Of a stretch of DNA of 64,000 bases, positions 27,220 through 62,000 are shown one piece after another (the first letter of the stretch is position 1; each line of letters begins with the position of its first letter). The notes beneath the pieces were generated by a model. That model did no database searches and was not told the origin of the DNA. It was given only the letters and a program-made list of their open reading frames with translations. The translations under genes and the position numbers were made by a program. This DNA is from a bacterium (GTDB lineage Bacteria; Patescibacteriota; Minisyncoccia; Phycocordibacterales; Zambryskibacteraceae): the NCBI GenBank assembly GCA_030649135.1, contig JAUSGI010000008.1, forward strand, positions 152,896-216,895. Reading direction: 5' to 3'.

Positions 27220-27240
27220 TGTCAAAGACCGTCTTTGACA
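27220..27240. repeat. REP-like 21-bp palindrome tgtcaaagaccgtctttgaca (copy 1a)
   Basis: Near-perfect palindrome 11 bp upstream of the RAYT-1 start. Confidence 0.8.
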
Positions 27241-27250
27241 TAATAGGTTC

Positions 27251-27898
27251 ATGGGTAATAGAGACTATAAAAAATTTGCCACTGGAACTATCTTTCATAT
27301 ATACAATAGAGGCAATAACCGAGAAAAAATTTTCCATGATGAGCAGGACTATAAAGCGCTAATATTTAGAATTGGTCTGGCACTAGGATTCGAAGAAAAA
27401 GAACTGTCACATCAATTATGTCACCAACCATATTCAAGAATCAGGATTACAGGCACACATAAAGGAAAATTCAAGCTACACGCTTTTTGTCTTATGCCAA
27501 ATCATTTTCACTTACTTATCGAACAGTGTGAAGATGTGCCTATATCGAAAATTATCTCGAAAATATGTGCAAGTTATGCTAAATATGTAAATAAAAAATA
27601 CAAAAGAGTCGGGCATGTATTTCAGGATAAATTTAAAGCAGTACTTATGGAATCAAATGAACAACTTATGTGGATTTGCACATATATACACATGAATGCA
27701 GTGAAGGACAGTATGGTCAAACATCCAGATGAATATGTATGGAGTAGCTACAATGACTATACAACTGACAGAAATCTGCCAATCATAAATACTGACTTTT
27801 TGATCTCACTATTTGGTGATAAAAATAGTTTCAAAAAAGAGACCCTCCGCCCTTACTCAGATAGCCTGTCAAAGACCGTCTTTGACATTAAGAGTTGA
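27251..27898 (+). CDS. REP-associated tyrosine transposase (RAYT) / IS200-like Y1 HUH transposase, paralog 1
   Basis: YxxxRGN N-terminal motif (FHIYNRGNNREKIF), HUH motif CLMPNHFHLLIE and catalytic Tyr region CTYIHMNAV. AT-rich gene flanked by REP palindromes. Confidence 0.75.
   Translation: MGNRDYKKFATGTIFHIYNRGNNREKIFHDEQDYKALIFRIGLALGFEEKELSHQLCHQPYSRIRITGTHKGKFKLHAFCLMPNHFHLLIEQCEDVPISKIISKICASYAKYVNKKYKRVGHVFQDKFKAVLMESNEQLMWICTYIHMNAVKDSMVKHPDEYVWSSYNDYTTDRNLPIINTDFLISLFGDKNSFKKETLRPYSDSLSKTVFDIKS
27867..27887. repeat. REP-like palindrome tgtcaaagaccgtctttgaca (copy 1b)
   Basis: Identical to copy 1a. Overlaps the last codons of RAYT-1 (KTVFD). Confidence 0.8.
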
Positions 27899-28695: not shown

Positions 28696-28727
28696 AATAT
28701 TTTTTATTTCAGGATAATGTCAAAGAC

Positions 28728-28748
28728 GGTCTTTGACATACACATACA
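28728..28748. repeat. REP-like palindrome tgtcaaagacggtctttgaca (copy 1c, inverted centre)
   Basis: Same arms with centre g instead of c, so opposite orientation. Confidence 0.8.
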
Positions 28749-35541: not shown

Positions 35542-35550
35542 TCCATCCCT

Positions 35551-35575
35551 TTGTCAAACACTGGGTGTTAGACAA
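35551..35575. repeat. REP-like imperfect palindrome ttgtcaaacactgggtgttagacaa (copy 2a)
   Basis: Abuts the RAYT-2 stop codon. Confidence 0.7.
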
Positions 35576-36235
35576 CTATAGGATCTTCAAATAATCTAGC
35601 TCTTCTTCTAGAAGTTTTGCTGGACTTGTCCTAGTAAACTCTTGGTATTTGTCTGGGCCTTTGAATTGACCTAGAACGATTTCTGATAAAAGCAGACTTC
35701 CCCATCGATTTTCTTTTATAAAATCTTGATAGCTTGACCAAGGATATTGGTCTTCTTTCTTAAACCACTTCCCAATCTCTCTCGGGTTTCTATGAATATA
35801 GCTAGACAGATATAAAAGCTGATGATCACCTTCTATATGAACCGCACGATAAGGCCCTTGAAAAACATGTCCAGATTTATCATATCTGGTATTGTAATAT
35901 TTGGCATAAGCATTAAGCACTCTCTGCATATAAGCTGCTATGCCTTCTTCTTCAACTTCTTTGACCAATAAGTGGAAATGGTTTGGCATGATACGGAAAG
36001 AAACAAGCTCAACTGTACGCTTTTTAACAATCTCCTCTGTATTATCTAACACCCGGTGTTTGACGAAATCCTTTACTGACCTACCAACCTGTGGAAAAGT
36101 TACTTCTGATTGGAAGTAAAGAATGAGGAAAAGAAATCTGTTGTAGTCTCCTGTATCATGAAAAATAACTTGTTTGTGTACACCCCTATTACACAAATGA
36201 TAATACTCGTTTGGAGACAACCGTGTTCTTCTCAT
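35576..36235 (-). CDS. REP-associated tyrosine transposase (RAYT)/IS200-like, paralog 2
   Basis: YYHLCNRGVHKQVIF, HUH FRIMPNHFHLLVKE, Tyr motif SYIHRNP. AT-rich. Confidence 0.75.
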   Translation of the reverse strand: MRRTRLSPNEYYHLCNRGVHKQVIFHDTGDYNRFLFLILYFQSEVTFPQVGRSVKDFVKHRVLDNTEEIVKKRTVELVSFRIMPNHFHLLVKEVEEEGIAAYMQRVLNAYAKYYNTRYDKSGHVFQGPYRAVHIEGDHQLLYLSSYIHRNPREIGKWFKKEDQYPWSSYQDFIKENRWGSLLLSEIVLGQFKGPDKYQEFTRTSPAKLLEEELDYLKIL

Positions 36236-36245
36236 ATATTCATTA

Positions 36246-36270
36246 TGTCAAATACCCGGTGTTTGACAAA
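36246..36270. repeat. REP-like imperfect palindrome tgtcaaatacccggtgtttgacaaa (copy 2b)
   Basis: 10 bp upstream of the RAYT-2 start. A degenerate third copy lies inside the gene at 36045-36064. Confidence 0.7.
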
Positions 36271-44936: not shown

Positions 44937-44944
44937 CTAACCAC

Positions 44945-44985
44945 AAAACTCACCCCGATTAATCGGGGTGAGTTTTGTTCGTTTT
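44945..44985 (+). terminator. Rho-independent (bidirectional) terminator
   Basis: 14-bp stem aaaactcaccccga/tcggggtgagtttt with loop ttaa, then gttcgtttt. Confidence 0.6.
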
Positions 44986-51917: not shown

Positions 51918-52064
51918 AGTGACCCTTATGGTAACATGGCTAATATGTTATTCGATAAGAAACATAAGAAGAAAATCAGAGTAGTTTGGATGGCGCTCTC
52001 GGTTCTCATGATTTTAAGCATGATTCTCTTATACTCTCCCTTCTTCCAAATATAAAACCCGAAA

Positions 52065-53891
52065 CTAACCACGGCGAATCATCTTGAGAAAAACGTCTTG
52101 GGAAATATTTACTTTCCCGCGCTCCCGCATCTTCTTCTTGCCCTTCTTTTGTTTCTCCCGGAGCTTCATTTTGCGGGTAATATCACCGCCATACATATGC
52201 TGGGTGACATCCTTCTTCATGCCGCTAAGGGTCCGTGAGGCAATAATGCGACCAAGAGCCTTGGCCTGAATCTTCAGCGTAAACATCTGCCTAGGCAAGG
52301 CAGCGGCCAGTTTATCCACATCCGATTCAGACTCTGTCTCAACTTGTCTGCGGGATATTACTTTGGCAAAGGCCGGCACCACTTCATCGGCTATCAAAAT
52401 ATCCAGACGAGTAACGTCCGCCAGTCTTTCACCGGCTAGCGAGTAAGAGATGGAGCCAAAACCGGATGTCGCGCTTTTAAGCTTATCGAAGAAACCTCTC
52501 ATCAGTTCCCGGAGGGGCATTTCAAAAGAGAGTGAGGCGCGCGCCTCACCGAAATTTTCCGTCTCCCCAAGCTCTGCCTCAAACTCATAAAGAAGCTGAA
52601 CCACCGGACTGATAAATGCGGGCGGCACAATGACCGTAGCTTTCACCCACGGTTCCCACACCGAACTTACGAGATGGTCTTCAGGAAAAAATGATGGGGT
52701 ATAAACTTGCCCCTCACTGCCATTTTTGTATACGATTCTATACGTGATACTCGGCAAAGTGATGACCAGGGGCAGATTAAATTCACGTCTCAATCTTTCG
52801 GTGATAATCTCCAGATGAAGCATGCCGAGAAAACCGGCGCGGAAACCCCTACCAAGCACGCTGGAGGATTCTTCTTCGAAAGAGAATGCCGAGTCGGATA
52901 GACGTAGTCGGGAAAGGGCCTGTTTCAAAGCGGTGAAGTGGTCTTGATTCTCCGGGTAAATAGAAGCCCAAACTACAGGAAAGGGCTTCGCATAGCCAGC
53001 CAAGGCGGGACTACCGTCGGTGCTCGCGGTAATCGTATCGCCAACAGAAGCGATTCCGGGCTCCTTGATGCCTGTGACAATGTAACCTATTTCCCCCGAT
53101 ACCAGTTCCGATACCTTCTTCTCCTCCGGGGTAAACACACCAACTTCTAGAGACTGAAACTCTTTGTCCGCCACTTTGAACCTTAACTTATCACCCGACT
53201 TCACAGACCCGCTAAAAACACGCACAAAGACAATAACCCCTCGGTGATTGGAATACTGGAAATCAAAAACCAGACTTCTGAACCCCCCCGAGGAAAGACC
53301 TAGGGGAATTCCCCTAGGTCTTTCCTCGGGGAATTGCGGAGAGTCGTGACTGGAGCTGGGCGGCGGTACACGTTTAATGATTTCGTCCAAAAGATTTAAT
53401 ACACCTTCCCCTGTTTTACCGGAAACAAGTAAGACCTCGTTACTATCTATGTGTAAAAGTTTGGAAATCTCTTCCTTGACTTCCGCCACCCGCGCCAGAG
53501 GAGAATCAATTTTGGAAATAACGGGAATAATTTTGAGTTGAGCGACCTCGGCCATCCCTAGCGTCGTTAAGGTTTGAGCTTGCACCCCCTGCGTGGCATC
53601 CACCAGAAGTATCGAACCCTCCACGGCACCGAGAGCGCGCGACACTTCGTAAGAAAAATCGATATGGCCGGGAGTATCTATCAAATTTAAAATATACTCC
53701 CCATATTTCATCCGCACCGGTTGCATCTTTATGGTAATTCCCCGCTCACGTTCAAGCTCCATGGAGTCGAGTACTTGCTCGCGCATGTCCCGCTTGGCTA
53801 TCGTGCCGGTCAACTCAAGCATCCTGTCCGCCAAAGTAGATTTGCCGTGGTCAATATGCGCTATGATGCTGAAATTACGAATCTTATCCAT
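52065..53891 (-). CDS. lepA: Elongation factor 4 (LepA)
   Basis: FSIIAHIDHGKSTLADR G-domain. LepA-specific C-terminal domain ...GGDITRKMKLREKQKKGKK. Confidence 0.9.
   Translation of the reverse strand: MDKIRNFSIIAHIDHGKSTLADRMLELTGTIAKRDMREQVLDSMELERERGITIKMQPVRMKYGEYILNLIDTPGHIDFSYEVSRALGAVEGSILLVDATQGVQAQTLTTLGMAEVAQLKIIPVISKIDSPLARVAEVKEEISKLLHIDSNEVLLVSGKTGEGVLNLLDEIIKRVPPPSSSHDSPQFPEERPRGIPLGLSSGGFRSLVFDFQYSNHRGVIVFVRVFSGSVKSGDKLRFKVADKEFQSLEVGVFTPEEKKVSELVSGEIGYIVTGIKEPGIASVGDTITASTDGSPALAGYAKPFPVVWASIYPENQDHFTALKQALSRLRLSDSAFSFEEESSSVLGRGFRAGFLGMLHLEIITERLRREFNLPLVITLPSITYRIVYKNGSEGQVYTPSFFPEDHLVSSVWEPWVKATVIVPPAFISPVVQLLYEFEAELGETENFGEARASLSFEMPLRELMRGFFDKLKSATSGFGSISYSLAGERLADVTRLDILIADEVVPAFAKVISRRQVETESESDVDKLAAALPRQMFTLKIQAKALGRIIASRTLSGMKKDVTQHMYGGDITRKMKLREKQKKGKKKMRERGKVNISQDVFLKMIRRG
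53286..53331. repeat. Perfect 46-bp palindrome inside lepA, in frame (ccccgaggaaagacctaggggaattcccctaggtctttcctcgggg)
   Basis: The sequence is its own reverse complement. Encodes PEERPRGIPLGLSSGG in the lepA frame. Related to the dnaE element. Confidence 0.85.
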
Positions 53892-53908
53892 AATGATTCC
53901 AGGCAACC

Positions 53909-55585
53909 TTATACTATCTCCGGGTCAGTAGCAACAACGTTTGCTTTCCAGAACTTACCCCGCACCACACCCCAGACTTCATGGAGTTCTCGACTCTTAA
54001 GCGCAAATAAAATCGTAACGCCCACGGCCATAGCAAATAGCCCTGCCCAAAAACCTTGCAAGAAAATACCCACAAGGGAGGTTGTATCGAGTAAGCGGGC
54101 AAAGATGTTTAGCCCAAGGTAAGCGGTTGCTCCCATGATGACAGAGGACCCCAAACCTTCGAACAATGTCCGAGTAACCCCGCGCGAGAAACCCCGAAAG
54201 AACTTCTCAAATGTCATCCAGTGGAGCAGACCGTTAATAATAGTGGCAATAGAGAAACCCAAAGGTAACATCAGGACGGCCGTACCGGACAAATCTTCAA
54301 CCTTGAGAAGCGCGCTGATAAAATAACGGAACTCCGCCGACCAGTAGAAAATTTTCACCAACCACCAAGTACCCATCACCATGACAGTAGTGGAGATAAG
54401 ATTGAGAAAAAACGGCTTTCTGGTAAAACCGGCGGAATAAAACCCTCTGATAAAAAGTAAGAGGAGACACTGGAACACGGAGGAGAGAGCGAAGAGCGCC
54501 AAAGCGGCCGCGGTCAAGCGGGTCGCATCCCAATCGAAAAGCCCCGAACCAAGAACGACTCTGACAATTTGCGCGCGCAGCACAATAAGGAGCGCCGAGA
54601 CGGGTAGCGACCAGAAGATGATAAATCTCGCGGTAGTCGCCATCTGCTGTTTAAAAGCCTCGAGATTATTCTCTCTGAAACGCCTGGAAAGAGTCGGGAA
54701 CGCCGCCAGAGAATATGAGACACCGATAATAGAGAGGGGTACGGATTGAAGATTTATGGAAAACGAGAGAATGGCGATGGAACCTGCCGTCATCAAGGAT
54801 GCCAAAGATACCAGACAAATCAGAGCGATGGAACTCATCGACAGGGTTAGCGTCCTGGGCAGGGAAATCCTGACCACTTGAGCAATGAGTGCGAAGTCAA
54901 ATTTTAGCGAAAACCGCGGGAACAGACCCGCCCTGACCACAAACGGCACCTGTATCAAGGCATGCAGGCTCGCCCCCGCAACCACGCCAATGGCCACACC
55001 TATAATACCCAGCCGTTCGGCGAAAAGAATAATACCGACAATGATACCGGCGTTATAAAAGAGCGGGGCCAGAGCGTAGATAGTGAAACGGTTATAAGCT
55101 TGAGTTAGAGAACCAAACAAATTTGAAAATCCCAATATAATTGGCGAGAGCAAAAGCATACGGGAAATAAAAATAGCTTCAGCAAGCGCCGGCCCGGAAA
55201 AGCCCTGAAATAAGAAACCCGAAAGAGCCGGCAAGAGAAAAAATGCCAGACCGGAAACGGTGATAATCAGGATGGAGAAGAAAGAAAAAACATTATTTAT
55301 AAAAGAGCGTAGCGCTTCCAAGCCCTTGGCTTCCCTCTCGATGACAAATGGAACCAGGACCGAAAGCGAGACAACCGAGGCTACTGTGACAAAGAGAAAA
55401 TCCGGAATACGGAAAGCGGCATAATAAATATCGAGCTCTGCCGAAGCGCCGAAGATGTGCGCGAGAAGCCTGTCGCGCAAGAAACCCAACACTTGAGACA
55501 AGAAAGCAAAGAGTCCCAATAAGAGCGCGGCCTGATTGAGAGTCCCGGTCTCCTTATAGAGAAAGCCGATAATCTTGCGAACCAT
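53909..55585 (-). CDS. murJ: Lipid II flippase MurJ (MviN family)
   Basis: About 14 TM helices. N-terminus LGFLRDRLLAHIFGASAELDIYYAAFRIPDF is MurJ-like. Confidence 0.7.
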   Translation of the reverse strand: MVRKIIGFLYKETGTLNQAALLLGLFAFLSQVLGFLRDRLLAHIFGASAELDIYYAAFRIPDFLFVTVASVVSLSVLVPFVIEREAKGLEALRSFINNVFSFFSILIITVSGLAFFLLPALSGFLFQGFSGPALAEAIFISRMLLLSPIILGFSNLFGSLTQAYNRFTIYALAPLFYNAGIIVGIILFAERLGIIGVAIGVVAGASLHALIQVPFVVRAGLFPRFSLKFDFALIAQVVRISLPRTLTLSMSSIALICLVSLASLMTAGSIAILSFSINLQSVPLSIIGVSYSLAAFPTLSRRFRENNLEAFKQQMATTARFIIFWSLPVSALLIVLRAQIVRVVLGSGLFDWDATRLTAAALALFALSSVFQCLLLLFIRGFYSAGFTRKPFFLNLISTTVMVMGTWWLVKIFYWSAEFRYFISALLKVEDLSGTAVLMLPLGFSIATIINGLLHWMTFEKFFRGFSRGVTRTLFEGLGSSVIMGATAYLGLNIFARLLDTTSLVGIFLQGFWAGLFAMAVGVTILFALKSRELHEVWGVVRGKFWKANVVATDPEIV

Positions 55586-55589
55586 CCAG

Positions 55590-57923
55590 TCAGTTTTTTA
55601 TCGAGTTAGTCAGGAACGTACGTTTACCGACTCTAAGTTCCTTAAGAATTAAACGCACCTGTTCATTATCGGGGTTGGTAATAGCTAGGGCTTCGAATTG
55701 CTCTTGGGCCTTATCCAACTGGCCGAGTTGAGCAAAAGTGAGACCAAGATAATACTGGGCATTGGCATAATCCGGTGCGGACACAAGTGCCTTACTAAAA
55801 GCAGCAATCGCACCGGCGTAGTCTTTCACAGAATACTTCAGTAAGCCCAACTCGAAGTAGATGCCGGGATTATTGGATACCAAGAGAGCCAGCTTCTCCG
55901 CGGAAACAATAGCACTAGTCGTATTTCCATCCTGGATTTCCAGTTGAGCAAGCATCAAGTGGGCATCAGCATAATCCTCTTTGAGAGCAATGGAACTCCT
56001 GATGAAGGAACGAGCCGCCTCTCTATTGCCGCGATTCAGTTCCAATCTGGCCAGAAAAAGGGGTATCTCCGGATTGAGAGGATTTCGTTTGAGAGCTTCG
56101 GAGTAAGCGAGAGAAGCACTCTCATAAGCGCCTGCTATGGAGAGCGGCTTAGGTACCAGAGCGCTATAAATCATGCCGAGCGAGACCCAGTTCTGGTAGC
56201 TAGCCGGATTGATACCAACGGCAGACTTCGCCGCTTCAATACTTTTTCCCAGAGACTCCTCGAAAGTTGCTTGATTGTCTTTCAAAGCTCCGGTAGTAGC
56301 ACTGGCGGCTGTTTGAGCTTTGAGAAAATTGATACGCGAGAGAGCAATATAGTACGTATCTATCGGGGAAAATTTCACCGCCTTATTAAGCTCGTTCTCA
56401 ATCTCCACCAGAGGAGTGCCGGTGATATTGGAAAGGTCAACAGCTTTTTTGAAATAAAAAGCTGACACCGTTTTGTTAAACCCTGTCCAACCAAGGAAAA
56501 GAGCCCCGCAAGCAATCACCGTTATGAGAAGGGTCGAAACAAAACGAAGCTGGGAAGACTCTTTCAAGCGAAAAGTGCGAAGAGAAATAATACCTGACAC
56601 ACCACTTGCCGCTACAAAAAGTCCGGTGAAGATGAAAGCGAACATCAGCACGGTTGCCGAAGGAACGTAGAGAAAACTAGAAACCCAAAGGAAACAGGTG
56701 ATTAAGAAAACAGAGACGAGTGCGAAGCGTTCGGCTCTCGATTCCGGCATACGACCCCAAACTTTGACCCCCAACATGATAAGGAGAACGAAGAAAGTCA
56801 GCCACAAAGCCGTGCCAAGTATGCCGGTAGAAGCTATTTGTGTCGGTATAAAGCCCACACCGAACGGAAACGCCACGGCCCAGAAGGGAGTGGTATTTAT
56901 AGCGACCGGTTTATAGACGAGCCAGTCACGCCCAAAAGTATTGGGACCGGAACCAAGAAACCTTTCTTGGGAAAGCACGGCCTTCGAGATGCCCAGAGTA
57001 GCCGAGAGGGAGGGACGCACATCAATATTCTCGACTTTGAAACTTCTTGATACCCAGTCGCCAAGCGTACCTTGGGTCACGGATAGGTTCGGATTATAGA
57101 GAAAGGCAATGGAAATTATGCCGAGAACCACCGGTAGAAAAGTCGGCTGGAAAAAAAAGTATCTCGACGCTTGTGGTAATACCGGCGCGGCGTCGGAGAA
57201 AGGTTTTTCCATCGTTAAGAAATAGAGCAAGAGGAAAATAGAAGCTCCTAAAGTTAGAACAAATGCGGTGGAGAAATTGAGAATTGCCAAGAGCGCCACT
57301 CCGAGCACAAAGGCGCCATAGACGAGTGTTTTGACAACGAATTTCATCGGAATCATACCGATTGCCAGAGCCGCGAAGCTCGATAGAAGCCCGAAAGAAA
57401 CCGCCAAATCTGTCCAGTTGCCGATAGGATTGCCCATGTTGCCGACAAAGTTCCCCCAAACTAAAAAATCACCGCCCAAGAAGACTTTGATAGCCACAAA
57501 AAGCGCTACGAGTGAAATGGAAATAAGGAAAGCCGCCAATGCCTGGAGAATACGCGAGGTACCGGAAAATATCGTGGCTACCAATATCAAGAGCATGGAA
57601 CCGAAGAGCGTGGAACCGAAGGTCCCCACCTCGAAATTGTAACCAAAAAGCGAAAGTAAAGACGGCGTACTTAAAAAAGCGGACAGGGCATAAATCACAG
57701 GCAAAAGCAGAGCTAAGAGAATCGACAGATGCCATGGCATATTTAACTCCCCTTTTCGCCAAGTCTCCAGGAGAAACACCAGAACCACCGCGATAACACT
57801 AAAAACAAGAAGCGCCGACTTGGCCGCATCCATATTAAGGGCTCCACCTGGGACAAAGAACACCGGTAGAAGGAAGAGAAATACCATAGTGATAAGGAAA
57901 CTGGTTTTGTGTGATGTAGACAT
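55590..57923 (-). CDS. Polytopic membrane protein (O-antigen ligase/Wzy-like) with C-terminal TPR repeats
   Basis: At least 10 TM helices followed by ~300 aa of TPR-like repeats (YANAQYYLGLTFAQLGQLDKAQEQF). Confidence 0.5.
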   Translation of the reverse strand: MSTSHKTSFLITMVFLFLLPVFFVPGGALNMDAAKSALLVFSVIAVVLVFLLETWRKGELNMPWHLSILLALLLPVIYALSAFLSTPSLLSLFGYNFEVGTFGSTLFGSMLLILVATIFSGTSRILQALAAFLISISLVALFVAIKVFLGGDFLVWGNFVGNMGNPIGNWTDLAVSFGLLSSFAALAIGMIPMKFVVKTLVYGAFVLGVALLAILNFSTAFVLTLGASIFLLLYFLTMEKPFSDAAPVLPQASRYFFFQPTFLPVVLGIISIAFLYNPNLSVTQGTLGDWVSRSFKVENIDVRPSLSATLGISKAVLSQERFLGSGPNTFGRDWLVYKPVAINTTPFWAVAFPFGVGFIPTQIASTGILGTALWLTFFVLLIMLGVKVWGRMPESRAERFALVSVFLITCFLWVSSFLYVPSATVLMFAFIFTGLFVAASGVSGIISLRTFRLKESSQLRFVSTLLITVIACGALFLGWTGFNKTVSAFYFKKAVDLSNITGTPLVEIENELNKAVKFSPIDTYYIALSRINFLKAQTAASATTGALKDNQATFEESLGKSIEAAKSAVGINPASYQNWVSLGMIYSALVPKPLSIAGAYESASLAYSEALKRNPLNPEIPLFLARLELNRGNREAARSFIRSSIALKEDYADAHLMLAQLEIQDGNTTSAIVSAEKLALLVSNNPGIYFELGLLKYSVKDYAGAIAAFSKALVSAPDYANAQYYLGLTFAQLGQLDKAQEQFEALAITNPDNEQVRLILKELRVGKRTFLTNSIKN

Positions 57924-57978
57924 GGAAAATGCCGATAAATTATACTTGTTAATACTTTCATCTTAACATATAATGGAG

Positions 57979-58308
57979 TTGGTGTCGGATAGTTGCCCCA
58001 ATGTAAATTGGGGAGGAAAGTCCGAACATTCATTGTGAGATGTCGCACATGTGCAATCTCGCAAAAGGGTAGCAGGTAACGCCTGTCGTCCCGCCTTGGC
58101 GGGATAGAGGTGCGAACAGAAACGACCCGGTTCAGTCCGGCTGCAACGGCAAAATCCTTACCTGAATGCAAGGCCGTGCCCCGAGAGCAATCAAGGGGAG
58201 TGCCGCTAGAGGCCAATAGCGATATTGGTCCCAGATAAATAACTGTCGATTAGTTGCCTACGCGCAAGCTACGGCGTACTGATACAGAATTCGGCTTATA
58301 GACACCCA
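57979..58308 (+). ncRNA. rnpB: RNase P RNA (bacterial type A)
   Basis: Conserved GGAGGAAAGTCCGAACA (P4 5' strand), AGCAGGTAACGCCTG, ACAGAATTCGGCTTATAG (P4 3' strand). P1 pairing is TTGGTGTC/GACACCCAA. Confidence 0.7.
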
Positions 58309-58340
58309 AAGCGCCTCGACATTACGTCGAGGCGCTTTGT

Positions 58341-58362
58341 GACGAGGAAAGACCTCGTGGCG
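58341..58362. repeat. REP-like hairpin gacgaggaaagacctcgtggcg (copy 3a)
   Basis: 19-nt core CCACGAGGTCTTTCCTCGT (reverse complement) identical to copy 3b. Preceded by a separate 13-bp hairpin (58308-58338) at the rnpB 3' end. Confidence 0.75.
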
Positions 58363-58381
58363 TGGTACTATAAACAACATA

Positions 58382-59044
58382 ATGGGAGCAAGGCAAGGAA
58401 GTTTCGCTGCGGGAGAATACTACCACTTATACAATCGCGGTAATAGTAAACAGAAAATTTTTCACAGCAAACACGATTATGAGCGTTTTTTAAAGTTGCT
58501 ATATATTGCAAACTCTTCAGAAAAATTCCACTTCTCCGACATTCAAAATCCATACGAGATAGAAAGGTCTGCCCGACTGGTATCAATAGGAGCGTATTGC
58601 TTGATGCCAAATCATTTTCATCTACTGATGACGCCTGTGAACGACAAAGAAGCTGGGGTAAGTAAATTTATGAAAAAATTAGGCACTGCTTATGCTATGT
58701 ATTTCAATACAAGGTACGAGAGAGTGGGAAGCCTTTTCGAGGGAAAATTTAGATCAGAACATCTTGACTCAGACCGTTATCTCAAATATATATTTTCTTA
58801 TGTACATCTTAATCCTATAAAGATTATGGATAACAAATGGAGGGAACTTGGTATTAAGGACAAAAACAAAGCCTGGCGATTCCTCAATGGATACAAATAC
58901 TCAAGTTTTTATGATTACCAGGATAAACACAGGGAGGAAGAGAAAATTTTGAACAAAGAAAATTTTCCTGGCTACTTTCCCTCTGCACATAAGTTTAAGG
59001 AAGAAATATTTGATTGGCTAAACTTCAGCAACCGAAAGCAATAA
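58382..59044 (+). CDS. REP-associated tyrosine transposase (RAYT)/IS200-like, paralog 3
   Basis: YYHLYNRGNSKQKIF, HUH CLMPNHFHLLMT, Tyr motif SYVHLNPIK. AT-rich. Confidence 0.75.
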   Translation: MGARQGSFAAGEYYHLYNRGNSKQKIFHSKHDYERFLKLLYIANSSEKFHFSDIQNPYEIERSARLVSIGAYCLMPNHFHLLMTPVNDKEAGVSKFMKKLGTAYAMYFNTRYERVGSLFEGKFRSEHLDSDRYLKYIFSYVHLNPIKIMDNKWRELGIKDKNKAWRFLNGYKYSSFYDYQDKHREEEKILNKENFPGYFPSAHKFKEEIFDWLNFSNRKQ

Positions 59045-59067
59045 CCACGAGGTCTTTCCTCGTGGTT
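59043..59067. repeat. REP-like hairpin aaccacgaggtctttcctcgtggtt (copy 3b)
   Basis: 10-bp stem with a 5-nt loop. Inverted relative to copy 3a. Confidence 0.75.
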
Positions 59068-59074
59068 AGCGTGA

Positions 59075-62000
59075 TTAGGGGGCAGGTTCTAGAATCAGTT
59101 CGGGTTCGGGAGTAGGTTCAGGAGCGGGCTCAAGAACGGACTCAGGAGCTGGTTCGACTTCGGTCATCGTAGTCTCTGTACTTGTCCCTGTAGGCTCAGT
59201 GGACGTTGCTACGGACTCCAGTTCTGGTGCTGATATCGGTTCAAGCGTAGGAGAAGATGTTGAAGTCGTGCCACCTGAACTTGCCTGCCCAGAGCTTGTC
59301 GAGGGGGATGAGCTTGCCGGGACAGGCGAGTTGGCAAGTTCAAGCAGGATAGAAAGCTCGGTCTTCGTGACACAGACGTCTTCGATACAAAGCTCTTTGG
59401 TATAAACAGTCTCCGAGCTGATAGTCTTTGCGAACACAACCTGGAGACCATTACCGGAGTCTGCCAACCACTTGCCTACTCTGGATAAAATGTTGGTGAA
59501 GAAACGTTCGGCAAATGATTGTAAGTCCGGTGTGGTGGTGGCAATGGCAGATACATCGAGTACCGATAATATTTTAGTGTTACTGTCATTGAGATTACCA
59601 AAGTCCGTATTCAATTTTGTGATAGCCTCGGTATGGTCGTTTATGCCGATAGTTAGCAAGGCATTCAATTTGTCTGCTTCATCCTGCGCGATTTGCTGCA
59701 TTTGAGGGTCCAAATTCAAGTTCTCGGTCGCCTGTGTAATCATCTGCTGTACCTGGTCTTCTATTTTCATATTGGCAATACGTTCCACTACCAAGGTTTC
59801 GACTTCTTCCACGGCCAGTGATTTATTGCGGCGAGAAATTAAAACTTTAATTTTGCCTTTGCCCGTAGCGAGTGGCTCGAGAGCAATGCCCACGGTGGAG
59901 TCGCCACCGTCGGCACGCATCGCTAATCCTGGCGTAGAAGACGCCGAGGTCAAAGAGTCGCCAATGTTAATCGAGCCATTTTCTGCCGAGACAAAAGCGT
60001 CAACCTGACCAAGCATGCCGATAATGGCATAATGAGACGCATCCGCTTCGACCGCTTTGATATAGTTACCGATAACTGATGGCTTGGTGGAAACTATACC
60101 CATAACATTATTATCTGCGCCACGCTCACAGCGCTTAATCGCGTTGTTTTCTACGACATCAACGCAGACAACTTCTCCAGATTTTAGGTCAACGCTATTG
60201 GTGTAAAAATATTCGGCATAGTCAGCTGCGGGCGAAGTATATGCCCCATCGGCTTTGGTATTGCCGTATGAGTCGACTTTGAAAATAAGACCGGAAGTGG
60301 TGGTAGAGATGACGAAAACATCTCTTAGAACTACTGTGTTATCTACCAAGGATAATTTCGCATAAGGGCTCGTCGTCCCAATACCGACATTGCCGGTGGT
60401 GCTGGCAATGCGCATGGCTTCAGATTCATTATCACGATAGAAGACAACGGCGCCACCGATAGTGAATGTCCCAATGCCTAAAGTTTCATTAGACTGATCC
60501 CATCTAACTCGGGCACCCAGTCCATCACTTACGTTACCAAAATTAATATCCTGCGTCGTGCCGTCAGGTGTTTGGAAAGTCAACCCGGTACTGACATCGT
60601 CCTCAATCATTACTAAAGCGGGGTCTCCGCCGTTGACAGTACCGGTACCGCCAAATATATGGAGCAACGAGTTTGTTTCCGGCGTTGTCGTCCCAATGCC
60701 GACTCTTCCAGAAGAGTCGATACGCATTCTTTCCGTACTACCACCTGTATGTAAGGTGATAACTCCTGAAGAATGGCGAGCAGCGATAGCAATTCCGCCA
60801 GCTCCACCATCTCCACTAGTAGTGTGTAAACTGGCTCCGTTCGCTCGGTTATAGGTAGTGGCGCCAGAGTCATAGGTTGAACCGTACACCATCATAGCAA
60901 GACCGGTAGATCCAGTATCGTTGATTAAGTTCCAGCCGGTTTGAGCGCTACTTAACGTTGATTCAATTGTGGGCTGAATTTGTGCGGTTGAAAATATATG
61001 CAGAAGTTGACTTGGGGTCGTCGTCCCAATCCCCACATTACCCCCCATAAAAAGCCCCGCAATAGGATTCGTGGCAGTTGACGAAGCGACATACGACACA
61101 ATCCCCCCGCCCGAATAAATCCCCCCCAGTCCCGCACTGATTCCTCCGTACACACTCAAGTTTCCTCCCAGCACGCCATTTCCATCCACATGCAAAACGT
61201 TACTTCGTAGCGCTCCCGCATAGAGCGACGGAGTCTCCGTCCCGTTGATGTTTATTATAGTGAACATATCATCCACCCGACTGGTGATGTAGGCGCGATT
61301 ACCTGAAATGGCAATGCCGTTAATGCCGTCAAACCGAGTAGAATCGGTGTCCGAAGTGACAAAGTATGGTCGTGAGGGGTTGGAAATATCAATGACATTA
61401 AAATAGTCCCCCGTTTCGCCTCCGACATACGCGTAATTACCCGCCACCGCAAGGCCAACGGGTACTCCGACATTGTTTATTTGTCCAAGTTTGGTGGTGT
61501 CGGTAAGTGTCCCGGCGATAGTGGGGGCTTTAGGATTGGAAACATCAATAATAGTGAAGGTCGAAGTGGTGGTTGCTACGGTATAGGCGTACCGCCCCGA
61601 GACAACGATATTTTTGGCATTATTTAGATTCGTGGTATCTATCAGAGAACCCACAATGACCGGTGCGTCAGTCCGAGAGATGTCAATGACGGCAAGCGCG
61701 TTTGAGTATGTTCCAATCGCATAGGCATATTTACCCTGCACCGCTATGCCTTGGGCAAAATCGAGGAGCGAGGCACTCGAAACAAAGCCAGATACCACAG
61801 GGGCAGTAGGGTCGGATACGTTAACAATAGTAACCATATCGTCACTTCGGTTTGCAACGTATACATATTGTCCCGAAACCGCAACCTGCATGGGTGTGTC
61901 TAACCGAGTAGCGGAAGACACCACTCCCACTATCTTTGGAACCGTTGGGTTAGAAATATCAATAACCGTCAGACTATCTGCAGTTACCGAACTGACATAC

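Follow-up and report, generated by a model that had tools for sequence, protein, structure and literature searches.

How does a perfect palindrome of 46 bp come to lie in frame within the gene for a translation factor? The palindrome occupies positions 53286-53331 of a 64,000-nucleotide stretch of a contig (JAUSGI010000008.1) from an uncultured patescibacterium, the whole of which is called the window below, and its host is lepA, the gene for EF4. The palindrome is very likely a REPIN-like element, that is, two inverted REP (repetitive extragenic palindromic) hairpins that can form one long hairpin, and belongs to a repeat family associated with Y1/HUH transposases of the RAYT (REP-associated tyrosine transposase) type in Patescibacteria. 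Copies of the repeat occupy several housekeeping genes in frame, are conserved at the DNA level, are associated with RAYT genes and are patchily distributed. An earlier note on this DNA had argued for a mobile, protein-tolerated palindromic family from two in-frame insertions; family, transposase link and distribution bear this out and support an element that is real, mobile and tolerated by proteins. The REP/REPIN-RAYT class to which it is assigned is a known one, and the assignment is made because its arms are REP-type hairpins that flank RAYT genes.

The lepA locus contains the following features.

52065-53906, minus strand: lepA (EF4), host gene, an open reading frame (ORF) of 613 codons.
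53286-53331: lepA doublet, a REPIN-like pair of inverted REP hairpins that forms a perfect 46-bp palindrome in the lepA frame.
53286-53308, plus strand: left REP arm, CCCCGAGG-AAAGA-CCTAGGGG(AA).
53309-53331, plus strand: right REP arm, (TT)CCCCTAGG-TCTTT-CCTCGGGG, the exact reverse complement of the left arm.

The sequence of 53286-53331, CCCCGAGGAAAGACCTAGGGGAATTCCCCTAGGTCTTTCCTCGGGG, is its own reverse complement, and lepA reads it on its coding (minus) strand as (F)PEERPRGIPLGLSSG(G), just as the earlier note had described. The two arms of 23 nt each are 100% complementary and meet without a spacer. Among 100 dinucleotide-preserving shuffles of the window, none contains a match to this palindrome. 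As single-stranded DNA the doublet folds at -26.3 kcal/mol (z = -9.9 relative to shuffles), and the corresponding RNA hairpin at -45.6 kcal/mol.

Each arm can also fold by itself. An 8-bp stem (CCCCGAGG / CCTAGGGG) with one G.A mismatch closes a 5-nt loop, AAAGA, so that the arm is what defines a REP unit: a short imperfect palindrome capable of forming a hairpin when single-stranded. Folding energies are -5.9 kcal/mol for the lepA arm CCCCGAGGAAAGACCTAGGGGAA with its internal mismatch and -10.2 kcal/mol for its perfect variant TTCCCCTAGGAAAGACCTAGGGGAA. Seven of eight pairs form within the arm and 21 of 21 between the arms, and the stability of the long hairpin greatly exceeds that of two arm hairpins formed separately.

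The host ORF is identified as lepA by its Pfam domains (GTP_EFTU, GTP_EFTU_D2, EFG_C and LepA_C), and solved EF4/LepA structures align with it over its full length. A database protein of 608 aa (P0001, LepA) starts at the ATG at 53891. Across the palindrome, TAG interrupts two of the three frames, and the one left open is that of lepA. Alignment to Thermus EF4 and to 120 orthologs places the additional residues between the G domain and domain II. In an AlphaFold model, the insert (residues 180-201) is a coil with a predicted local distance difference test score (pLDDT) below 50, located between the G domain's final helix (164-174) and the initial strand of domain II (205-214). The insert is thus predicted to be disordered, in the linker of the two domains. 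About 16 inserted residues had been proposed at this position; size and location hold. No clean empty lepA site is available to fix the boundaries exactly, and element lengths of 45, 46 or 48 nt are compatible with the data.

A second copy is found in the gene for the replicative polymerase, where the earlier note had also placed a sister palindrome.

5179-9006, plus strand: dnaE (DNA polymerase III alpha), host of the sister copy.
8217-8262: dnaE sister doublet, a perfect 46-bp palindrome of the same family, in frame in dnaE.

The dnaE palindrome, TCCCCTAGGAAAGACCTCGGGGTACCCCGAGGTCTTTCCTAGGGGA, likewise has 23-nt arms that are 100% complementary and occupies its sole open frame, in which it is read (V)PLGKTSGYPEVFPRG. 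The true start of dnaE is probably well downstream of 5179, because the PHP domain does not begin until residue 209 of the ORF. The lepA and dnaE arms had been called module-swapped versions of each other. They do differ, but the difference amounts to two bases in each arm, at positions 5 and 17 of its 21 nt, so that dnaE arms have T.C at the stem position where lepA arms have G.A. These changes are mirrored in the opposite arm, and therefore both palindromes stay perfect.

The dnaE copy is a lineage-specific gain, a separate insertion of the same family. Its peptide is found in none of 120 DnaE orthologs, and its site is a hypervariable loop of 0 to ~70 residues among them. In the closest DnaE ortholog for which DNA is at hand, FTVVNTKP is directly followed by YKIRF (an empty site), versus FTVVKDNV, PLGKTSGYPEVFPRG and YKIRF in the window, a net difference of +15 codons. 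Presence and absence between relatives, as expected of a mobile element, is therefore seen for the dnaE copy, and the lepA copy is patchily distributed. The same DnaE loop holds long unrelated inserts of up to ~70 residues in other proteins (P0255, P0344, P0270 and P0291), for example ...SLGRLPGEPSGRELGLGNPG... Some of these long inserts of other Patescibacteria may be products of other palindromic repeats.

Further members of the family were sought in public genomes and metagenomes by an exact 21-mer scan with the arm CCCC[G/T]AGGAAAGACCT[A/C]GGGG as the query. The scan yielded 5 genome loci and 33 metagenome loci; the genome of the window itself is not among the GTDB representative genomes that were matched. 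An element of this family consists of two inverted REP hairpins of ~21-25 nt with the stem CCCC[G/T]AGG / CCT[A/C]GGGG and the loop AAAGA. Two other readings of the repeat were considered and rejected. A phage origin was discarded because the arm has no exact match in IMG/VR viral contigs. A known RNA family was discarded because an Rfam search over 52000-60000 gave, for the palindrome, only a sub-threshold microRNA-like hairpin (29.9 bits versus a gathering threshold of 80), which was treated as chance.

The neighbors of the repeat indicate what it is. The perfect arm variant TTCCCCTAGGAAAGACCTAGGGGAA, with T-A in place of the mismatch, brackets homologous Y1 transposase genes at L002, L003, L005/L042, L019, L024, L025, L030, L033, L034/L044 and L037. 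One copy precedes the transposase start by ~20 nt; the second is placed at the 3' end of the gene or within it, where it encodes SPRKDLGE. At L012/L032, the hairpin flanking the RAYT gene is identical to the lepA arm CCCCGAGGAAAGACCTAGGGGAA. The two REPs of a flanking pair have their loops in either the same or inverted orientations (L002, L024, L025, L030, L032, L033 and L037 versus L003, L005, L034 and L044). As the stem is symmetric, these arrangements differ in nothing but the direction of the 5-nt loop (AAAGA or TCTTT). The lepA-type and dnaE-type arms are related through the same kind of loop/stem flip.

A perfect hairpin, CCCCGAGGAAAGACCTCGGGG, occurs once in a Bacteriovoracaceae metagenome-assembled genome (MAG; L001 3646-3666) and once in an unassigned metagenome contig (L021 2961-2981); a RAYT gene was not seen near these copies. 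They may be coincidental, because about one chance match is expected, by estimate, in the genome scan.

Doublets also occur in other genes. All eight distinct metagenome loci with doublets lie inside ORFs, in frame and in the lepA-type arrangement with a 2-5-nt centre, and their hosts were assigned by Pfam.

L014: in-frame doublet in the gene for UvrB.
L017, L018 and L022: in-frame doublet in the gene for topoisomerase I (topA).
L035: in-frame doublet in the gene for an M50/RseP protease.
L020/L040, L036/L039 and L043: in-frame doublet in the gene for GatC, in three lineages.
L016/L028: in-frame doublet in the gene for LepA.

The earlier note had two copies, those of lepA and dnaE; the family thus extends, beyond the dnaE copy in the window, to uvrB, topA, gatC, an M50 protease gene and lepA in metagenomes. 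The right arm of the doublets is always read PLGLSSG, and the left arm is read PEERPRG, or SPRKDLGE when the centre has another length. Two reading frames of the same DNA are thus used in unrelated proteins, which rules out an explanation at the protein level. The position of all eight doublets in ORFs is not a significant enrichment in coding DNA at a coding density of ~90%.

Across 13 doublets, 18-21 of 21 positions pair between the arms. Compensated double changes affect positions 5 and 17 in dnaE and position 9 in L009. The doublets therefore have the structure by which REPINs are recognized, with two inverted REPs, one long hairpin and compensated changes in the arms. The other half of the REPIN description, many copies in extragenic DNA, is not seen here, where the window has two doublets in 64 kb, both intragenic, and eight of eight metagenome doublets are in ORFs. 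A single REP hairpin, CCCCTAGGAAAGACCTAGGGG, was also observed within the HhH domain of an NAD-dependent DNA ligase (L013 6381-6401), where it is read APRKDLGE. This ligase segment is presumably of normal length when compared to E. coli LigA (ASIEELQKVP), and for this reason the repeat may have replaced native codons rather than added residues.

The window itself carries three RAYT paralogs, each bracketed by its own hairpin type. Several RAYTs per genome, each with a private REP type, is the classical REP-RAYT ('REPtron') organization.

58382-59044, plus strand: RAYT-like Y1/HUH transposase of 220 aa, candidate mobilizing enzyme in the window.
58342-59067: REP-bounded span around this gene, with ACGAGG-AAAGA-CCTCGT(G) at 58342-58359 and CCACGAGG-TCTTT-CCTCGTGG at 59047-59067.
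27220-27898, plus strand: span of the second RAYT paralog (gene 27251-27898), with the perfect hairpin TGTCAAAGACCGTCTTTGACA at 27220-27240 and 27867-27887.
35550-36270, minus strand: span of the third RAYT paralog (gene 35576-36235), with hairpins TGTCAAA(C/T)AC...GGTGTT(T/A)GACA at 35550-35575 and 36246-36270.

The protein encoded at 58382-59044 matches Pfam Y1_Tnp with 31.1 bits (cutoff 23), and N77-H78-F79-H80 and Y140-x-H142-L143-N144-P145 are invariant among 40 homologs. Its AlphaFold model (pLDDT 85.8) has as its top Foldseek match in the PDB the E. coli RAYT with a REP hairpin (4er8_A, E 3.8e-6), followed by the TnpA proteins of IS608 and ISDra2. The structural alignment with 4er8 has 12% identity. 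This match was found by structure comparison only; a sequence search of the PDB with phmmer and a 40-sequence profile gave nothing significant. Thus, a Y1/HUH fold, the HUH motif, a catalytic tyrosine and a RAYT as the closest structure, features that define the RAYT family, are all present. Judged by its sequence, the protein is a distant relative of curated RAYTs. It is 53-55% identical to the RAYTs flanked by CCCCTAGGAAAGACCTAGGGG.

The hairpins around this gene are ~5 kb from lepA, like the gene itself, and have the inverted orientation. Their loop and inner stem (CGAGG-AAAGA-CCTCG) are as in the lepA and dnaE arms. The full-length protein is absent from a collection of 5.8 billion proteins, in which a fragment of 146 aa (P0127) is 100% identical to it. 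In the closest relative, the syntenic RAYT (L011 2621-3292) is flanked by the hairpins GTCGAGG-CCTTG-CCTCGAC. RAYT and hairpins appear to diverge much faster than LepA, because this RAYT is 57% identical to that of the window, versus 90% for LepA, and its flanking hairpins are different.

The two further paralogs of the window show 31-34% identity. In the second, the downstream copy of TGTCAAAGACCGTCTTTGACA encodes the C-terminus of the RAYT (LSKTVFDIKS), and a third copy lies past the neighboring gene, at 28718-28738. In the third, a further hairpin copy at 36042-36067 is located in frame within the RAYT ORF, where it is read FVKHRVLD, and in this region the protein is ~10 residues longer than its paralogs.

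Two other structured loci of the window were noted. A bacterial RNase P RNA (Rfam RF00010, 84 bits with gathering at 100, E 7.6e-25) lies directly upstream of the 58382 RAYT, at 57981-58339, and ends in a 14-bp perfect hairpin (58307-58339) with a terminator-like look. A 36-bp perfect palindrome at 44943-44978 (ACAAAACTCACCCCGATT/AATCGGGGTGAGTTTTGT) is unrelated to the REP family; it starts a few bases past a TAA stop and resembles a bidirectional terminator.

How could such a doublet reach lepA? In the likeliest mechanism, a RAYT would recognize the folded REP hairpins on single-stranded DNA, cut and rejoin the strand, and thereby copy or move the doublet. This model, with excision from and insertion into single-stranded DNA, is drawn from analogy to E. 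coli TnpA-REP and IS200/IS605, and fold and gene context are consistent with it. Which RAYT acts in this genome can be named only as a candidate. Copies in genes would survive only if the added length is a multiple of three, if the phase places the single stop-free frame in register, and if the site is a permissive loop; the other two frames of the doublet would be blocked by TAG from CCTAGG. Selection would in this way filter insertions by phase and position. The lepA copy would be translated as ~15-16 extra residues in a disordered linker and is presumably neutral for LepA.

Several findings weigh against a REPIN-like element mobilized by a RAYT. High copy number is a hallmark of REPINs, and the 64-kb window holds two doublets. 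The only NCBIfam family matched by the 58382-59044 protein, and hence the best, is REP_Tyr_transpos (NF047646), with 40 bits, below the equivalog cutoff of 80. The hairpins of this gene (CCACGAGG...CCTCGTGG) differ from the lepA and dnaE arms at 3 of 21 positions, which makes them related and non-identical; because of these differences, the cognate enzyme may sit elsewhere in the genome or be lost. Neither a clean empty site nor a target duplication was found for lepA, where the difference to the closest empty ortholog (L048) is +11 codons and the junction is unalignable. Finally, all six lepA carriers have identical junctions (CCN CAA TTN ... one codon ... TTY), and these shared junctions could reflect one old insertion under selection rather than repeated transposition.

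The distribution of the insert among lepA genes bears on this last point. Among 120 orthologs, six LepA proteins with 76-83% identity have QFPEERPRG(I/T)PLGLSSG at the same position. The DNA of five carriers, from independent assemblies of different projects (Logan, NCBI and ENA), has the same palindrome at the same site, and related copies are also present in JGI metagenomes. Orthologs that share the peptide thus share the palindromic DNA. The 54-nt block of the element is 91% identical among the six orthologs, as are its third codon positions (91%), whereas the flanks (180 nt on each side) are 68% identical and their third codon positions ~40%. In L009, a compensated change is present in both arms.

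In a LepA tree built without the linker, the carriers are scattered, and the nearest relatives of five of seven carriers have no insert or a different one. The closest relative of the window (P0002/L011), whose LepA is 90% identical (93% outside the linker), has tandem CTAGGACATCCGATGTCC hairpins in its linker instead. In P0037/L048, a LepA that is 91% identical to P0009 and P0023, the linker is short and empty. The idea that the L011 insert was built from the hairpins of its own RAYT was rejected upon comparison of the lepA units (CTAGGACATCCGATGTCC) with the RAYT flanks (GTCGAGGCCTTGCCTCGAC).

The lepA linker is a recurrently occupied, permissive site, because other lineages hold further insert types there. 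At least three other recurrent types were observed in Parcubacteria (P0002-P0120; L011, L045, L046 and L047). The type xQGQTL...SQGLT is an eroded doublet of the hairpin AAGGTCnGACCTT, the type AHGQ(V/R)GKFA(I/T)AGTA is non-palindromic in L046, and the type DRK(G/R)ELPxLGPxGxVATNS has an outer 9-bp inverted repeat. These inserts are likewise scattered over the LepA tree, and some are eroded palindromes. The data tend to favor repeated insertion or exchange over one old insertion kept at the DNA level.

A bolder proposal, which we consider doubtful, is that the lepA linker, along with one site each in gatC and topA, is a homing or exchange site at which RAYT-type enzymes again and again insert, renew or swap different hairpin cassettes, at one codon position of the same essential genes, across deeply diverged Patescibacteria, or that the hairpin has been co-opted in cis as a signal for replication, repair or translational pausing. 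If true, this would explain why one lepA linker has at least four palindrome-like inserts. It would also explain the 91% DNA identity of the A-type insert against saturated flanks in polyphyletic carriers, and the bias of hosts to genes for DNA replication and repair, as reported for other phyla (PMC3733652).

A single ancient insertion in the lepA linker is unlikely. The insert would then be vertically inherited with hardly any change, would have a functional hairpin (in DNA or mRNA) or peptide, which could bind a RAYT or another protein or make translation pause between the G domain and domain II, and would have been lost or overwritten elsewhere. The identical junctions and frame of the six carriers fit this history, as do element DNA conserved far above its flanks, the compensated change in L009 and the very stable RNA hairpin (-45.6 kcal/mol); gatC likewise has one site in three diverged lineages, with some erosion. 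However, the carriers are scattered, and in their closest relatives, at 91-93% identity outside the linker, the insert is missing or of another type. Disorder is predicted for the insert, and the occurrence of the same sequence in unrelated genes, in two frames and beside transposase genes is better accommodated by a mobile repeat.

Local origin, in which template switching or snap-back synthesis perfected a pre-existing quasi-palindrome with no mobile element, is highly improbable. Both window copies are perfect through their centres (AATT and GTAC), as expected from inverted duplication, and the lepA linkers of other lineages hold several other palindrome-like inserts. This process would not place the same 21-nt arm in at least seven genes unrelated to one another and, in many genomes, next to genes for transposases, and the 2-5-nt centres of the other copies are non-palindromic. 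An assembly or amplification artefact, such as a fold-back chimera, can be dismissed even though the sequence comes from a MAG and perfect palindromes are known to arise as artefacts, because the lepA ORF is intact and in frame and five independent assemblies share the insertion at the same lepA site.

Such a REPIN-like repeat has consequences beyond this locus. REP/REPIN-RAYT systems, which have been studied almost only in Proteobacteria, evidently exist as well in the reduced, gene-dense genomes of Patescibacteria, also known as CPR (candidate phyla radiation) bacteria. The doublets sampled are translated loops of essential proteins (LepA, DnaE, UvrB, TopA, GatC and RseP). Such inserts account for the variable length and the odd low-complexity loops of CPR core proteins. 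They can lead marker-gene alignments and phylogenies astray, and they mark permissive protein sites. A single lepA site that is recurrently occupied by different hairpin families, with conserved DNA, offers a tractable case for distinguishing REPIN site targeting from co-option. The replication and repair hosts parallel an unexplained observation in other phyla (PMC3733652). No paper in the literature searched deals with REP/RAYT or in-frame palindromes in Patescibacteria or CPR. REP/REPIN-RAYT in Patescibacteria therefore seems undescribed, and the kind of element is known from other bacteria.

Among known systems, REPINs and RAYTs are the closest. REPINs can adopt a long hairpin or an alternative 'clover' fold, and their arms show compensated changes that maintain complementarity (Bertels & Rainey 2011, PMC3116915); RAYTs have been divided into groups (10.1101/119735). 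The element described here shares the assembly of two inverted REP hairpins into one long hairpin, the pairing in the doublet of bases that are mismatched in the REP, and compensated arm changes. In relatives, the REP brackets a Y1/HUH transposase gene, as the exact arm in L012/L032 and as the T-A variant at the other loci, whereas the hairpin around the nearest RAYT of the window is a related one with 3 of 21 differences. Several divergent RAYT paralogs per genome each have their own REP type, and the position of the RAYT is syntenic between relatives (the window and L011; beside recA in L002, L003 and L005). At 44-47 bp, with a centre of 2-5 nt, the element is much more compact than REPINs, which measure ~70-110 bp and have a spacer. 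By definition REPINs are extragenic, whereas the doublets found here are all intragenic and translated. The host belongs to Patescibacteria instead of Proteobacteria, and its RAYT is only distantly related to the groups studied.

Intragenic REPs and REP dimers are known from the GTAG- and CGTC-tagged superfamilies, where they add ~20-30 residues in frame (Di Nocera et al. 2013, PMC3733652). A striking share of their hosts are replication and repair genes, such as uvrA/uvrB, dnaE and DNA ligase (PMC3733652). The in-frame insertion and the recurring hosts dnaE, uvrB, ligA and topA are similar here. In contrast, no GTAG or CGTC tetranucleotide tag is present at the hairpin ends of RAYT-associated or intragenic copies, which are flanked by TT...AA stem extensions, and the patescibacterial family is a different sequence family in a different phylum.

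Rickettsia palindromic elements (RPEs) are likewise inserted in the reading frame of genes whose protein products are likely functional (PMC3733652). Both kinds of selfish palindromic DNA are tolerated, in the correct frame, by essential genes of a small and gene-dense genome and are translated into surface loops. RPE-1, one of the Rickettsia-specific repeat families, is ~100-150 bp long and is not known to have a transposase. The element studied here is 46 bp, is linked to a transposase family, occurs in Patescibacteria and is unrelated in sequence, and thus is not an RPE.

Transposases of the insertion sequence (IS) family IS200/IS605 provide a last comparison. In that family, transposase genes are identical and multi-copy, whereas here they are divergent single copies, and the element has symmetric ends and no transposase of its own. 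The TnpA proteins of this family (PDB 2vjv and 2xm3) have the same transposase fold and act on hairpins, and their 'peel and paste' mode of transposition is a plausible mechanistic model for the movement of the lepA and dnaE doublets.

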